A DNA stretch of 39,101 bases from contig CAYMRZ010000001.1 of NCBI GenBank assembly GCA_964393045.1, positions 2,102 to 41,202 of the forward strand. Reading direction: 5' to 3'. This DNA comes from an uncultured Bdellovibrionales bacterium (GTDB lineage: Bacteria; Patescibacteriota; Minisyncoccia; Moranbacterales; DUUL01). The notes beneath the pieces are model-generated. The model saw only the letters and a list, made by a program, of their open reading frames with translations, did no database searches and had not been told where the DNA came from. Shown here in pieces: positions 9,287-35,768 of this stretch. Made by a program: the position numbers and the translations under genes. Each line of letters starts with the position of its first letter. Within the stretch, counting starts at the first letter, position 1.

Positions 9287-9340
9287 GCCCCTATAGCTCA
9301 GCTGGTAGATCCGCCAGCCGGCGGACTCTTAAGCCGACGT
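9287..9340 (+). pseudogene. Truncated tRNA-Lys(CTT) 5' copy carrying a perfect hairpin in place of the D-stem 3' strand and anticodon-stem 5' strand
   Basis: Nt 9287-9309 are identical to tRNA-Lys positions 1-23. Then comes TCCGCC-AGCC-GGCGGA (9311-9326). Then CTCTTAAGCCGACG, which is identical to the anticodon loop plus 3' stem strand. There is no T arm or acceptor 3' strand. It sits 29 nt upstream of the intact gene. Confidence 0.7.
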
Positions 9341-9369: not shown

Positions 9370-9442
9370 GCCCCTATAGCTCAGCTGGTAGAGCAGCGGC
9401 CTCTTAAGCCGACGGTCCCAGGTTCGAGTCCTGGTGGGGGTA
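9370..9442 (+). tRNA. tRNA-Lys (anticodon CTT), CCA not encoded
   Basis: Hand-folded 73-nt cloverleaf: GCCCCTA/TGGGGGT acceptor, GCTC-AGCTGGTA-GAGC D arm, anticodon loop CTCTTAA, T arm CCAGG-TTCGAGT-CCTGG, discriminator A. Confidence 0.9.
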
Positions 9443-30014: not shown

Positions 30015-30091
30015 TGGCGGGGACGACCGGACTCGAACCGGCGACCTACTGCGTGACAGGCAGTCGCTCTAACCAGCTGAGCTACGCCCCC
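30015..30091 (-). tRNA. tRNA-Asp (anticodon GTC), CCA encoded
   Basis: The reverse complement folds as GGGGGCG/CGTCCCC acceptor, GCTC-AGCTGGTTA-GAGC D arm, anticodon loop CTGTCAC, T arm GCCGG-TTCGAGT-CCGGT, G73, CCA. Confidence 0.92.
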
Positions 30092-30312
30092 GTATATAGG
30101 AAATTATGTTAAATATTATTTATTTTAAAAATTGCTTAAACATTGCTACTGCGAAGCTGGAAGCTGCCTGCCCGCCATAGCTTTAGCATAGGCGGGAGCT
30201 ACGCCCCCGTATATAGGAAATTATGTTAAATATTATTTATTTTAAAAATTACTTAAACATTGCTACTGCGAAGCTGGAAGTTATTTATCTCTCCCATAGC
30301 TTTAATGTAGTG
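30079..30312 (-). repeat. Two tandem 117-nt units, each holding the first 13 nt of tRNA-Asp, about 72 nt of upstream (promoter) sequence and a hairpin segment
   Basis: 30079-30165 and 30196-30282 differ at one position (g/a at 30134/30251). The remaining about 30 nt of each unit are diverged (CTGCCTGCCCGCCATAGCTTTAGCATAGGCGG versus TTATTTATCTCTCCCATAGCTTTAATGTAGTGAAG). Confidence 0.85.
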
Positions 30313-31907: not shown

Positions 31908-33716
31908 TTATAATTTTCCACCGCTTCTTTTGGCTCGAATTCTTTCATTTTCATTTAGATATTTTTTTCGCAGCCTCACGCTTTTAGGAGTTATTTCCAG
32001 ATATTCGTCGCCTGATATAAGCTCCATTCCACGTTCAATGGTAAGATCCATGGGAGGGATAAGCTGGATAGCATCATCGCTTCCACTGGCGCGCATATTG
32101 GTCAGTTGTTTTCCTTTAATGGGATTAACAGTCATATCGCATCCCTTGGCAGTATCGCCGATTACCATTCCTTCATAAACTTCCGTCCCAGCTCCAATAT
32201 ATAAGTTTCCTCTATTTTGTAAATTAAACAAGGAAAAACCCAATGCCTTGCCATTGATCATCGAAATCATTGATCCGGGCTGACTTTTCCTTATTTCTCC
32301 TGCCCAAGGGCGAAATTCTAGAAAACGAGTACAGAAAATTCCTTCACCTTTAGTGTCAACTACAAACTGGCTCCGATAACCAAACAGGCCCCGAGAGGGA
32401 ATTTCAAAAATCATTCTAGCATGCCCGTTGTTTTGTTTCATTTCTGTCATCACGCCTTTCCTCTTTCCTAATTTTTTAATAATAATTCCTGAATATTCTT
32501 CCTTTACATTGATAGTGACCTCCTCGTAAGGCTCCATTGTTCCCTCTTTTTGTTTTTTAATAATGACTTGAGGCTGAGAAATTTGAAGTTCGTAGCCTTC
32601 ACGCCTCATATTTTCAATTAAAATGGCAATATGAAGTTCTCCGCGTCCGGAAACTTTATAAAATTTATTAGATGAAAAATCAACTTTCAATCCTACATTG
32701 ACCTCCAGCTCTTTTTTCAAGCGTTCCTTGATTTGTAAATTTGTTACCAAGCTGCCTTCCCGGCTGGCGAAAGGTGAGTCGTTTACCAAAAAATTTAAGC
32801 TGATAGTTGGTTCGTCAATGATAATATTTGGCAGAGTTTTTTGACTTTTATTATTGCAAATAGTTTGACCGATATAAACATCTGGTAATCCGGCAATCAT
32901 TACAATATCTCCCTGAAAAGCTTCTTTGATTTCTTTTTTTTCAACTCCATGAAAGGTAAAAATTTTAGTTATGTACCCTTTTGAAATTTTTCCATCAGTT
33001 TTTTTAATTAACACAGCATCTCCGCTAGAAATTTTTCCTTTATAAATTCTTCCAATTGCCAGGCGCCCTAAAAAATTGTCATAAGCTAAATTAAAGGGCT
33101 GTAAAAGAAAATTTTCTTTAATCAAACTTGATTCATCTGAACTTGAAGCAGCAGGAACTTTTTCTATAATTAAGTCCAAGAGGGGATTGAGGTTATTATT
33201 TTTGTCTTTTAATTTTAGCTTGGCAATTCCTTGTTTGGCATTAGCATAAACAGTAATAAAATCAAGTTGTTCATCATTGGCGCCAAGGTCCAGAAATAGT
33301 TCATAAACCATTTCCTCCACTTCGGCTGGCCGGGCAGCCGGTTTGTCGATTTTATTTAAAACTACAATTGGCTTTAAGCCTAACTCTAAAGATTTTTTTA
33401 AAACAAAACGGGTTTGAGGCATAGGGCCTTCTTGCGCATCTATCAACAAAATCACGCAGTCGATAGCACGCAGAACGCGCTCTACTTCAGAGCCAAAGTC
33501 GGAATGGCCAGGCGTATCAACAATGTTAATTTTATTGTTTTTATAAATAACGGAAGTATTTTTTGAATAAATAGTAATTCCGCGCTCTTTTTCTAAGTCA
33601 TTGCTGTCCATTGAATATTCATCACAGGCAATTCCTGTCTGTCTCATCAAGGCGTCAGTTAGGGTGGTTTTTCCATGGTCGACATGAGCAATAATGGCAA
33701 TATTTCGTATTTTCAT
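31908..33716 (-). CDS. typA: Translational GTPase TypA/BipA
   Basis: 602 aa with G motifs [17 protein letters not shown] and NKIDK. It has EF-G-like domains and the BipA-type C-terminus. Confidence 0.93.
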
Positions 33717-33992
33717 AATTTAAGATTATCAAATGTTTTTCAAAAATAAAACCGCCCTTATTCTCGCAAAGGCGGGAATTTAAATGAAGATTAAATTAAA
33801 ACAGATTAATTATAGATTAAAATAAATCAAACGTCAACTGAAATTATAGCTGAAAATTATGGATAATCAATACAAGTTGTAATATTTTTTAGAAAAGATA
33901 TAATTAACGGAAAGACACTAGCGTTACTTGTAATAAAATTATCTAGCCAAAATTAACTGAATTGATATTGTTATTTAATTATAAATTAGAAA

Positions 33993-34166
33993 ATGGATAA
34001 AATCAAAGTAGAAAATCACAGCTTTACTGCTTTTTCCTGGGTAGCTGGTTGGCTTTTCACTGTTGGATTTTTAGAGTTGGCTTTTTGGAAAGGATTGATA
34101 GCTGTTTTGCTTTGGCCATACTTTATCGGTCAAGTGATTCATGATGTGGTAAAATTAAATGTTTAA
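33993..34166 (+). CDS. Small membrane protein (57 aa), hypothetical; below the ORF-track size cutoff
   Basis: ATG 33993 to TAA 34164-34166 translates to MDKIKVENHSFTAFSWVAGWLFTVGFLELAFWKGLIAVLLWPYFIGQVIHDVVKLNV, with two hydrophobic helices. No SD is seen. Confidence 0.4.
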   Translation: MDKIKVENHSFTAFSWVAGWLFTVGFLELAFWKGLIAVLLWPYFIGQVIHDVVKLNV

Positions 34167-34321
34167 CAAATAGTATAATTTTTTTAGCTTGCTTTATCCT
34201 TGTGAATAAGTTAAAATCTTAGAGTGGAAATTATTTTTTTGCTGAAAGCATTTGGTTGTTGTCGGGAGAGGTTGGCTAGTTATTGGTTTAAAAATTTAAA
34301 ATTATAAATTAAAATTTACAA

Positions 34322-34499
34322 GCCCCTTTAGCTCAATTGGATAGAGCATCTGGCTTTCCTGCCCGCCGTACAAGCCCTCGTGGTGAAATGGATATCACGC
34401 TTGGCTTCGGACCAAGAATTTCGGGTTCGAATCCTGACGAGGGTACGGCTTGGCAGGCGGGGGATCAGAAGGTTGAGGGTTCGAGTCCTTCAGGGGGTA
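34322..34499 (+). tRNA. Interrupted tRNA (identity ambiguous: Pro/Gln/Glu depending on junction) with a 104-nt intervening sequence in the anticodon loop
   Basis: The 5' part (34322-34353) has acceptor GCCCCTT, D arm GCTC-AATTGGATA-GAGC and stem strand TCTGG. The 3' part (34465-34499) has TCAGA, variable AGGTT, T arm GAGGG-TTCGAGT-CCTTC, acceptor AGGGGGT and discriminator A. 111 nt lie between the two anticodon-stem strands, where 7 are expected. Confidence 0.65.
34374..34445 (+). tRNA. tRNA-Arg (anticodon TCG), nested inside the interrupted tRNA; CCA not encoded
   Basis: Hand-folded 72-nt cloverleaf: GCCCTCG/CGAGGGT acceptor, GTGA-AATGGATA-TCAC D arm (A20 present), CTTGG-CTTCGGA-CCAAG anticodon arm, variable AATT, T arm TCGGG-TTCGAAT-CCTGA, discriminator A. 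Confidence 0.85.
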
Positions 34500-34537
34500 T
34501 GTTGTTACAAGAAAATTACTTGAATACTGTCTTATAT

Positions 34538-34619
34538 AGAAAGTCGAGAGGGTTCGCCCTATCATACGATAGGGCGCCATGTTGAATAACATGGCGAGTC
34601 CTTCAGGGGTACGTTGTTA
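34538..34619 (+). pseudogene. Partial copy of the 3' third of the interrupted tRNA, with a 40-nt twin-hairpin insertion in the T loop
   Basis: AGAAAGTCGAGAGGGTTCG, then a 40-nt insert (34557-34596), then AGTCCTTCAGGGGTACGTTGTTA. This matches AGAAGGTTGAGGGTTCG|AGTCCTTCAGGGGGTATGTTGTTA of the gene 40 nt upstream. No 5' half precedes it. Confidence 0.7.
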
Positions 34620-34907
34620 GCTTTTTAGAATTTAGCTTTTTGGCTTATTAAACAAGAAAATTTTATTAATTTGCCTGTGAGTCTTTGAGCAGCAACAAAT
34701 TAATAATCCTGCAATTAAGCTTGCTTTAGCGGAAGAATAGAGTTGCTGAACGGCCCTAAAAGTTTTCAGGGTAAAAATCTTTTGGGGAGGTACTAATTAA
34801 ATTTTTATTTTATAAAAAACTGGGCTAATTTACTTCATGGTTGTTGCTCGGTTTTTTTATAAAAACAAAATTTGTGATAAAATAGAAATAAATCCGTAGT
34901 AAACTAT

Positions 34908-35768
34908 ATGAAAATATTTAAAAAGATACTTTCCATTCTGTTTTTATTGGCAGTTTTATTTTTTGTTTCTAGAATTGTGGATTTTGATTTTTCAAAATTC
35001 AGCTTAAAGCCGGATATAAAAAAGAAAGAGAAGGCCTTTGTTGAGGAAAAATATCAAACTCCTATTCTCAGAAATGAAGAGCAAGATCAAATCCAAGAAA
35101 GAGAATTCCAGGGGACAGAGCTAGAGATTATCGAATTAGTTAACCAGGCTCGTTTCAAAGAAGAATTGCCAGCGCTTAAAAAAAATGAAAAATTAATGCA
35201 ATCAGCTTTGTTAAAAGCTGAAGATATGAAAGAAAAAAATTATTTTGAGCATGTTTCTCCGGAAGGATTGCAGCCTTGGTTTTTTGCGGAAAAGATAGGC
35301 TATAAATATAAAACATTTGGTGAAAATTTAGCAGAAGGATTTTTTAACTCTCAAAGCGTACATGAAGCTTGGATGAATAGTGCAGGGCATCGGAAAAATA
35401 TTCTAGGAAAAGACTTTGAAGAAATAGGCATTGGCATCACTGGCTTTGAACAAAATGGAATGAAAAGCTATATTATTGTTCAGCATTTCGCTTCCAAGCT
35501 TGCAGAAAAAGATTTGGAACCTCAAGTGGTTTGTGATCAAGATGTAAAAGAAAGCTGTGAAAATGCAAATGAGAAAGAGAAAGAAATAGACGATGTAGTT
35601 GATGAACAAAAGAAGGAGATTAAAAAAGCTAAAAAAGCCGGCGCTTCCAAAGAAGATATAGAGAAAATGGAAGACAACCTGGATGACTTGGAAGAGATGG
35701 ATGACAACATAGATGAATACTTGGATGATTGCGAAAATTATATAAAAAAGTGCGATAAATGGGAATGA
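34908..35768 (+). CDS. CAP/SCP (PR-1-like, YkwD-type) domain protein with N-terminal anchor and acidic C-terminal tail
   Basis: 286 aa with an N-terminal TM. The CAP core has LVNQARFKEELPAL, YFEHVSPEG, GENLAEGF and HEAWMNSAGHRKNIL. The tail is rich in D/E/K. Confidence 0.85.
   Translation: MKIFKKILSILFLLAVLFFVSRIVDFDFSKFSLKPDIKKKEKAFVEEKYQTPILRNEEQDQIQEREFQGTELEIIELVNQARFKEELPALKKNEKLMQSALLKAEDMKEKNYFEHVSPEGLQPWFFAEKIGYKYKTFGENLAEGFFNSQSVHEAWMNSAGHRKNILGKDFEEIGIGITGFEQNGMKSYIIVQHFASKLAEKDLEPQVVCDQDVKESCENANEKEKEIDDVVDEQKKEIKKAKKAGASKEDIEKMEDNLDDLEEMDDNIDEYLDDCENYIKKCDKWE

Follow-up and report, generated by a model that had tools for sequence, protein, structure and literature searches.

What becomes of a bacterial tRNA gene when a second, complete tRNA gene stands inside its anticodon? 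The question is raised by a 39-kb stretch of a Patescibacteria genome, the whole of which is referred to here as the window; coordinates are window positions unless another locus is named. At positions 34322-34499 of its forward strand, the two halves of a tRNA gene are separated by a 104-nucleotide (nt) cassette that carries another tRNA gene on a GC-rich stalk. Interrupted tRNA genes are central evidence in the debates on tRNA and intron evolution. In bacteria, group I introns occupy the anticodon loops of the cyanobacterial tRNA-Leu(UAA), the Azoarcus tRNA-Ile(CAU), and the Agrobacterium tRNA-Arg(CCU), and, to our knowledge, every described interruption of a tRNA gene in Bacteria is a self-splicing intron. 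We know of no described bacterial tRNA gene that is interrupted by another tRNA gene; a limited literature search found none. Judged from its sequence and that of a relative, the locus is a bacterial tRNA gene split inside the anticodon by a complete tRNA gene of the same specificity, an arrangement inherited by two diverged genomes.

Anatomy of the nested locus

The 5' exon of the outer gene (34322-34357, forward strand) comprises the acceptor strand GCCCCTT, a D arm with A20, the anticodon-stem strand TCTGG, and loop positions 32-35 (CTTT). The 3' exon (34462-34499, forward strand) continues with loop positions 36-38 (GGA), the stem strand TCAGA, the variable loop AGGTT, the T arm, the acceptor strand AGGGGGT, and A73. 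Together the exons form a complete cloverleaf, whose arms proper lie at 34322-34353 and 34465-34499; these arms, as well as the two anticodon-stem strands separated by 111 nt, are as the original prediction had described them. Run in its intron mode on the locus in situ, ARAGORN leaves the outer gene unreported and calls the inner gene alone, and with the insert removed it calls a 72- to 74-nt tRNA on nine of 11 constructs.

The inner gene (34374-34445, forward strand) is a 72-nt tRNA-Arg(UCG) whose variable loop has 4 nt and whose CCA is not encoded. That an independent tRNA-Arg stands here had been predicted, and the prediction is borne out by an ARAGORN call of tRNA-Arg(tcg), by a match to the full-length Rfam model RF00005 (61.9 bits, with a gathering score of 29; E=3e-11), and by conservation in the relative described below. 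According to the E. coli rules, the identity elements of arginine tRNAs are A20, C35, and A or G at position 73. The inner gene has A20, C35, and A73, within a D loop AAATGGATA, an anticodon loop CTTCGGA, and a discriminator A, respectively. It is presumed to be a decoding tRNA. The codons CGA and CGG account for 92 of the 408 arginine codons in the window, and its product is therefore needed.

The cassette (34358-34461) is composed of a 16-nt 5' arm, CCTGCCCGCCGTACAA (34358-34373, forward strand), the 72-nt inner tRNA, and a complementary 16-nt 3' arm, CGGCTTGGCAGGCGGG (34446-34461, forward strand), the arms being the two strands of the stalk. Comparison with the relative fixes the insertion site between anticodon nucleotides 35 (34357) and 36 (34462). 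The filled-site junctions read GGCTTCCCTGCCCGCC and GCAGGCGGGGGACCAG, and the empty site reads TCTGGCTTCGGACCAGAAGGTTGAGGG; there is no target-site duplication, and no tRNA segment is repeated at the cassette ends. The stalk arm sequences occur once in the window and are imperfect as inverted repeats. Their complementarity, which had been noticed earlier, is real, and the stalk forms part of the 178-nt fold of lowest free energy (-75 kcal/mol; z=-3.0 relative to shuffled sequences). In this fold, the outer acceptor, D, and T arms form, and the outer anticodon stem is lengthened up to the inner acceptor stem by pairs of 9 bp (UUUCCUGCC/GGCGGGGGA) and 4-5 bp (GCCG(U)/(A)CGGC or UGGC). Within the continuous stalk helix, the two junctions face each other directly, and the cofold of the halves after removal of the inner tRNA is still paired, at -46.7 kcal/mol.

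A second genome and the identity of the outer gene

The relative is contig CAZRQA010000008.1 of GCA_964602335.1 (L063), which was reached via the second member of the 90% cluster of the window's CAP protein. The TypA protein of this genome is 93% identical to that of the window, and the nucleotide divergence between the two genomes is about 11% (8.5-15% in flanking genes). At L063:629-806, in an independent assembly that comes from another project and a different population, the same nested architecture is found. It reads TCTGG CTTC, followed by CCTGCCCGCCGTACAA, the inner tRNA, and CGGCTTAGCAGGCGGG, and then GGA CCAGA. The 5' arm of the cassette is thus identical in L063, and the sole difference in the 3' arm is G34452, which is A in L063 and falls in an internal loop of the consensus fold. 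Since the locus is shared with a diverged and independent assembly, it is inherited and not an assembly chimera; on this comparison, the cassette was inserted before the window genome and GCA_964602335.1 diverged.

The original prediction had left the identity of the outer gene ambiguous among proline, glutamine, and glutamate tRNAs, an ambiguity that the comparison with relatives removes. Since the removal of exactly 104 nt from L063 yields GCCCCCTTAGCTCAATTGGATAGAGCGTCTGGCTTCGGACCAGAAGGTTGAGGGTTCAAGTCCTTCAGGGGGTA, a perfect tRNA with the loop CTTCGGA that ARAGORN calls tRNA-Arg(tcg), the outer gene is read as the lineage's resident tRNA-Arg(UCG) by descent, with the same anticodon as the inner gene, a point that the original prediction had overlooked. 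In L059, the nearest outgroup, whose CAP protein is 66% identical to that of the window, an uninterrupted tRNA-Arg(TCG) lies directly upstream of CAP, in synteny with the nested locus. The spliced outer body is 81% identical to this gene, 78% to the tRNA-Arg(TCG) of L016, 75% to the window tRNA-Lys(CTT), 65% to the inner tRNA, and 57% to a tRNA-Pro(TGG). The A20 D loop, the anticodon stem, and the AGGTT variable loop are common to the outer body and the arginine genes of L059 and L016.

Loop position 35 of the outer gene is C in L063 and T in the window. With the cassette removed, the window's outer gene keeps an intact cloverleaf, and ARAGORN reads its anticodon as ttg. Because C35, the main arginine identity nucleotide, became T (UUG if spliced), the window's outer gene is no longer an arginine tRNA. 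On present sequence comparisons, the outer and inner genes are different tRNA-Arg(UCG) genes with the same anticodon, and they have no k-mer longer than about 13 nt in common.

Two other ideas about the two genes have been rejected. An assignment of the outer gene to tRNA-Lys(UUU), which had come from an acceptor stem matching that of the window tRNA-Lys(CTT), is ruled out by the arginine tRNAs of L059 and L063. A phage origin of the inner tRNA had been considered from phage matches of, at best, about 85% identity; this hint does not discriminate, because the restored outer tRNA matches phage tRNAs equally well. Scans of viral collections gave no match for the inner tRNA and its junction. As a side observation, the acceptor stems of the outer tRNA-Arg (GCCCCTT) and the tRNA-Lys(CTT) (GCCCCTA) are nearly alike, and a G1-U72 wobble opens the acceptor stem of the clade's tRNA-Lys(CTT) and tRNA-Arg(UCG) genes (window 9370-9442 and 34322-34499; L059 2-76; L063 629-806).

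Sequence constraint on the locus

Two yardsticks are available for the divergence between the window and L063, the third codon positions of CAP and mreB (23% diverged) and aligned intergenic DNA (6.5% and 13%). The inner tRNA differs from that of L063 at one of 72 sites (71/72 identical), where 16.6 differences are expected from third codon positions (P<1e-4), and its conservation is significant against aligned intergenic DNA alone as well (P=0.005). Because of this strong conservation between the two genomes, the inner tRNA clearly appears to be functional. The outer exons differ at five of 74 sites (17 expected from third codon positions, P=0.0007), the stalk arms at one of 32 (7.4 expected, P=0.005), and a partial tRNA copy downstream of the locus (34548-34611) at four of 65 (P=0.0009 against the same positions); third codon positions have diverged 3 to 7 times as much as these three parts, none of which is significantly conserved against aligned intergenic DNA alone.

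With L059 as the outgroup, all five differences in the outer gene (C6T, G26A, C35T, C39T, and A57G) are assigned to the window branch, and the L063 branch has none, a 5:0 asymmetry with a Fisher P of 0.06. A faster window lineage is ruled out as the cause by the lineage-specific changes overall, which number 137 and 134, that is, equal rates. Seven sites differ in the 178 nt as a whole, of which three change a C-G pair to U-G and four are unpaired, so that no pair of the two-genome consensus fold is broken. A simulation of this compatibility on the pre-set structure gives a P of about 0.03-0.05, or of 0.15 if transitions only are allowed. By these measures, the outer halves and the stalk do not have the appearance of junk in free decay.

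The outer gene is followed by a spacer of 48 nt (34500-34547, forward strand), which has the same length in L063 (807-854) and an unrelated sequence (33% identity), whereas both of its flanks are 94% identical between the window and L063. Its alignment to L063, in either orientation, is no better than that of shuffles, and an inversion or a patchwork origin was rejected for want of any alignment signal. The first 8 nt of the window spacer (TGTTGTTA) copy the sequence after the downstream fragment (CGTTGTTA), which suggests recombination or conversion between the two tRNA 3' copies, namely, that of the outer gene and the downstream fragment. The substitution A57G and the changed 3' flank may be a single conversion tract from that fragment.

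Transcription, proposed processing, and a possible role of the outer halves

A promoter-like site (TTAAAA, a 16-nt spacer, and TAAAAT; 34288-34315, forward strand), whose function is predicted from its sequence, ends 6 nt before the 5' end of the outer gene, and its -10 element, together with the bases down to the outer G1, is conserved in L063. It is the sole forward-strand candidate between 34123 and the inner tRNA. Because it lies upstream of the outer gene, transcription of the inner tRNA would have to run through the 5' half of the outer gene. Between the tRNA locus and CAP, a conserved hairpin CTGGGC...GCTCGG (GCCCGG in L063) is followed by seven T (window ~34818-34862, L063 ~1128-1172). 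It was missed by the terminator scan because its loop is long, and it could be the terminator of the tRNA transcription unit.

The explanation that we favor, with a probability of roughly 60%, is that a cassette was inserted in the resident tRNA-Arg gene, that the composite precursor releases the inner tRNA, and that the outer halves are kept as a scaffold and are not joined. It starts from the anatomy of the locus, the arginine identity of the outer gene, the exact insertion site, the inheritance in two genomes, and the sequence constraint, all as given above, and it would add to them a processing route, an absence of ligation, and a scaffold role. In the common ancestor of the window genome and GCA_964602335.1, the 104-nt cassette would have entered the outer anticodon between positions 35 and 36. 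From the one promoter upstream of the outer gene, a single composite precursor would be transcribed and would fold with the outer acceptor, D, and T arms in place and the outer anticodon stem turned into a stalk of about 14-18 bp bearing the inner cloverleaf. RNase P would cut at 34373/34374, and RNase Z or 3' trimming would act at 34445/34446, followed by CCA addition. The released inner tRNA would decode CGA and CGG. The outer halves would stay paired and unjoined, serving as leader and trailer; in effect, they would be a natural scaffold of tRNA shape, contributing the promoter, defined ends, and a stable fold.

Several points weigh against this explanation. The processing route is modeled on general bacterial tRNA maturation, and the scaffold function is proposed by analogy. 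The gene content seen amounts to parts of both genomes, and it is an assumption that the inner gene is the sole tRNA-Arg(UCG). Against aligned intergenic DNA (10%), the conservation of the outer gene is not significant (P=0.22). On the L063 branch, the outer gene has no changes, where 8.5 are expected from third positions and 3.8 from aligned intergenic DNA; such pristine exons would fit maturation into a working tRNA equally well.

Hairpin-bearing tRNA fragments and a possible origin of the cassette

All three tRNA loci of the window carry partial tRNA copies joined to GC-rich hairpins. The fragment downstream of the nested locus (34548-34611, forward strand; L063 ~855-920) is a 5'-truncated copy of the outer 3' part, that is, the T arm and the acceptor 3' strand. 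Its T loop is interrupted at position 56/57 by a 40-nt insert of two 8-bp hairpins (34556-34595), and the fragment folds as a three-way junction (-32.1 kcal/mol, z=-5.8). Because it is conserved in L063 with compensatory or wobble changes in the stem of hairpin 1 (one compensatory change from C-G to T-A, two wobble changes), a function at the RNA level is suggested. It could also be an old remnant of an attachment (att) site.

At the lysine locus, a 5' fragment of a tRNA-Lys(CTT) copy (9287-9339, forward strand) lies upstream of the real gene (9370-9442), from which a 30-nt AT-rich spacer separates it. The copy matches the real gene exactly at positions 1-23 and 32-45, and a GC-rich hairpin of 16 nt, TCCGCCAGCCGGCGGA (TCCGCC/GGCGGA), takes the place of positions 24-31. 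The outgroup has no tRNA-Lys at the matching position, and the L063 contig ends 279 nt before gyrB, so the comparison of this locus was made without L063. The tRNA-Asp gene (30015-30091, reverse strand) is adjoined by a region of direct repeats (30079-30280), in which two 85-nt copies of 99% identity (30079-30163 and 30196-30280) each contain its promoter region along with 13 nt from the start of the gene. Between them, a GC-rich junction of 32 nt (30164-30195) forms the hairpin CCCGCC...GGCGGG.

Another example is found in L062 (Joint Genome Institute contig Ga0180007_10003605), an unrelated contig of the Candidate Phyla Radiation (CPR) that is not syntenic with the window. At L062 391-592, an intact tRNA-Arg(TCG) is followed, after 14 nt, by a copy without the 5' acceptor strand, which bears one hairpin of 32 nt in its D loop (21/22) and another of 20 nt in its T loop (56/57). 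The hairpin motifs of L062, CCCGCC/GGCGGG and CCTGCC/GGCAGG, are those of the window stalk, and when the tRNA is taken out of the cassette, its arms give a better alignment to the D-loop insert (CCCGCC.GTAC..AACGGC...GGCGGGG) than do 1998 of 2000 shuffles. The inserts are precise and free of duplications, lie in loops, and fold into helices. No hairpin-joined fragment occurs within 500 nt of the other ~30 tRNA genes called in related CPR loci, and a scan of about 758 kb found no orphan T-arm or D-arm motifs. In L066, an outgroup genome from the same sample as L059, long and near-perfect GC-rich palindromes (281-325 and 393-425; e.g., CCCCACCTTAGTCCTCCCCTTAGTAAGGGGAGGACTAAGGTGGGG) lie in AT-rich intergenic DNA upstream of gyrB, because of which strong hairpin elements seem to be common in the intergenic regions of the window's group.

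These fragments allow a tentative account of the origin of the cassette, which is compatible with the release of the inner tRNA from a scaffold. The cassette would belong to a family of small GC-rich hairpins that enter the loops of tRNA genes and duplicate no target site, and it would have been kept since it carried a replacement tRNA with the same anticodon into an essential single-copy gene. The precise insertion without duplication speaks for this origin, as do the like inserts in the extra tRNA copies of L062, the window, and L063, the alignment of the arms to the insert of a contig that is not syntenic, and the presence of fragments at three of three window tRNA loci against none near the other tRNA genes or in the scanned 758 kb. 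On the other side, a copy that carries a tRNA is known once, and the similarity of the motifs concerns a short, GC-rich sequence. The genes of the 39-kb window include neither an integrase nor a transposase nor a reverse transcriptase, and no polymorphism between empty and filled sites was seen among close strains. A metagenome scan for arginine exon halves 93-123 nt apart gave no other nested case, its one match being the tandem arrangement of L062, and the viral scans were empty.

Competing explanations for the outer gene

One rival explanation, which we regard as doubtful, is that the outer gene is a plain pseudogene that was killed by the insertion, has no role, and has had too little time to decay. 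It is in line with the loss of C35 in the window, with the five window-branch changes, which are near the intergenic-rate expectation of 3.8, with the lack of significant conservation against intergenic DNA, and with the genome's tolerance of other tRNA fragments. However, the outer exons, the stalk, and the downstream fragment have diverged several times less than third positions, the L063 branch has no changes, and no difference breaks a pair. The inner gene, moreover, depends on the promoter and leader of the outer gene, because of which part of the outer gene, at least, is not dispensable. This explanation is the strict form of an idea raised in the original prediction; the core of that idea, that a resident tRNA gene was interrupted by a tRNA-carrying segment, stands, whereas the verdict of a simply dead gene is too strong in view of the conservation and the unbroken pairs.

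In another rival explanation, the inner tRNA behaves as an intron: it would be cut out by RNase P and RNase Z, and the outer halves, once trimmed of their 16-nt tails, would be ligated, so that, at least in L063, two tRNA-Arg(UCG) would be made. In its favor, a perfect tRNA-Arg(UCG) results when the cassette is precisely removed in L063, no substitutions fall on the L063 branch of the outer gene where 3.8-8.5 are expected, every change on the window branch keeps the cloverleaf, and the two junctions are exactly opposite in the stalk helix.

Against it stand the searches for known splicing signals. Group I introns have a conserved P3-P9 core and a size of at least about 200 nt, and the bulge-helix-bulge (BHB) motif has a 4-bp helix flanked by two bulges of 3 nt, which contain the splice sites. 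A sensitive Rfam scan of 33700-34950 at E<=10 returned the inner tRNA only and no group I or other intron or ribozyme family, and a BHB scan in all registers gave no strict solution at five junction sets (the anticodon inserts of the window and L063, the T-loop insert of the window, and the D-loop and T-loop inserts of L062). Both results agree with the earlier view that the insert is neither a group I nor a BHB intron.

The ends left by RNase P and RNase Z, 3'-OH and 5'-P, are not RtcB substrates, and both 16-nt tails would need exact trimming. The product in the window would have UUG in an arginine body, so that the function is, at best, already lost there. Because its anticodon duplicates that of the inner tRNA, there is no obvious need for a spliced outer tRNA. 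For these reasons (the UUG product, the 16-nt tails, and the unfit ends), the route of release, trimming, and RtcB ligation that the original prediction had proposed is not supported for the window, and splicing by excision of the inner tRNA is, in general, distinctly improbable. A linked version places such splicing in L063-like genomes, where the outer tRNA-Arg would still be made, with RNase P and RNase Z as the splicing endonucleases and the stalk-held halves trimmed and joined, and it takes the hairpin inserts in the D, anticodon, and T loops of CPR tRNA copies as a new class of duplication-free elements or introns that target tRNA loops; it, too, is unlikely.

An assembly or chimera artefact can practically be set aside: both genomes in which the nested locus is known, the window genome and GCA_964602335.1, are metagenome-assembled, and repeats near tRNAs could confuse assemblers, but the same 178-nt architecture recurs, with seven substitutions, in the independent assembly of another project, and since the outer and inner genes share no long k-mer, there is nothing to create a false join.

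Comparison with known systems

Like group I introns, the cassette is an inherited insertion that interrupts a bacterial tRNA in the anticodon loop without a target-site duplication. Unlike them, it has 104 nt, about half the size of the smallest natural one, it has no P3-P9 core and no Rfam group I match at the threshold given above, its core is a tRNA, and no self-splicing route is apparent. The BHB introns and the split and tri-split tRNAs of archaea such as Nanoarchaeum and Caldivirga offer another likeness, in that GC-rich complements hold two tRNA halves together and inserts occur at anticodon, D-loop, and T-loop positions. The present locus differs from archaeal BHB introns in its bacterial context, in the lack of a BHB motif at any junction, and in an intervening RNA that is itself a tRNA. 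In split tRNAs of the Nanoarchaeum type, each half has a gene and a promoter of its own, and joining takes place in trans, whereas the halves here lie 104 nt apart on one strand, with one promoter-like site upstream of the 5' half.

The intervening sequences of bacterial 23S rRNA are excised by RNase III, and the rRNA pieces are not ligated again. As in these, a helical insert lies at the hairpin loop of a structured RNA. They are also the closest match to the working proposed here, in which an insert would be cut out and the host pieces would stay paired. The differences are that the host is a tRNA and the excised part a useful product, that RNase P and RNase Z would act instead of RNase III, and that the function of the host RNA is probably lost. 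A further parallel is artificial. Ponchon and Dardel reportedly engineered "tRNA scaffold" RNAs by putting a cargo RNA where a tRNA has its anticodon loop. The nested locus resembles them in a cargo on an extended anticodon stem and in a tRNA body that gives processing signals and stability, but it is natural, inherited, and conserved, and its cargo is another tRNA, which would be released.

Mobile elements provide the last comparison. Integrative elements reportedly have their crossover sites in the anticodon loop or the T loop of tRNA genes, where partial duplicates of the tRNA are left behind (Williams 2002). The same two sublocations are affected here, and a 3' partial tRNA copy lies downstream; in contrast, no duplicated tRNA segment flanks the cassette, there is no integrase in the 39 kb, and the "element" has 104 nt. 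Set against a miniature inverted-repeat transposable element (MITE) with terminal inverted repeats, a target-site duplication, and many dispersed copies, the cassette has inverted arms that are imperfect, no target-site duplication, and arms that occur once in the window, with one similar hairpin in L062.

Genomic setting

The window is an ordinary chromosomal stretch of a genome of the Patescibacteria (CPR), near Moranbacteria, with a G+C content of 35%. Its genes include recG, gyrB, gap, murD, ftsW, ftsA, ftsZ, ddl, typA, a CAP-domain gene, proS, and mreB, and the closest homologues of its TypA and GyrB proteins all belong to metagenome-assembled genomes of CPR bacteria. Neither an EndA splicing endonuclease nor an RtcB-type ligase is encoded within the 39-kb window, which is a part of the genome. 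The gene order CAP-proS-mreB-mreC-PBP2 is conserved across related loci. No tRNA lies beside typA in relatives with a TypA identity of 77% or less, and none lies upstream of CAP in relatives more distant than L059. The assembly GCA_964602335.1 carries the label "uncultured Bdellovibrionales bacterium," which is probably wrong, because TypA, GyrB, and gene order place this genome among the Patescibacteria.

Implications

What the locus means depends on the fate of the outer halves. If they serve only as a scaffold, it would be a natural version of the engineered tRNA scaffold, and it would reveal one way of replacing an essential single-copy tRNA gene at its own site. If, on the other hand, the halves are joined again, it would represent a new, protein-dependent splicing route in bacteria, independent of both ribozymes and BHB motifs. 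More broadly, tRNA fragments with hairpins inserted precisely into D, anticodon, and T loops, present at each of the tRNA loci examined for this lineage, point to an uncharacterised process that acts on the tRNA genes of CPR bacteria.

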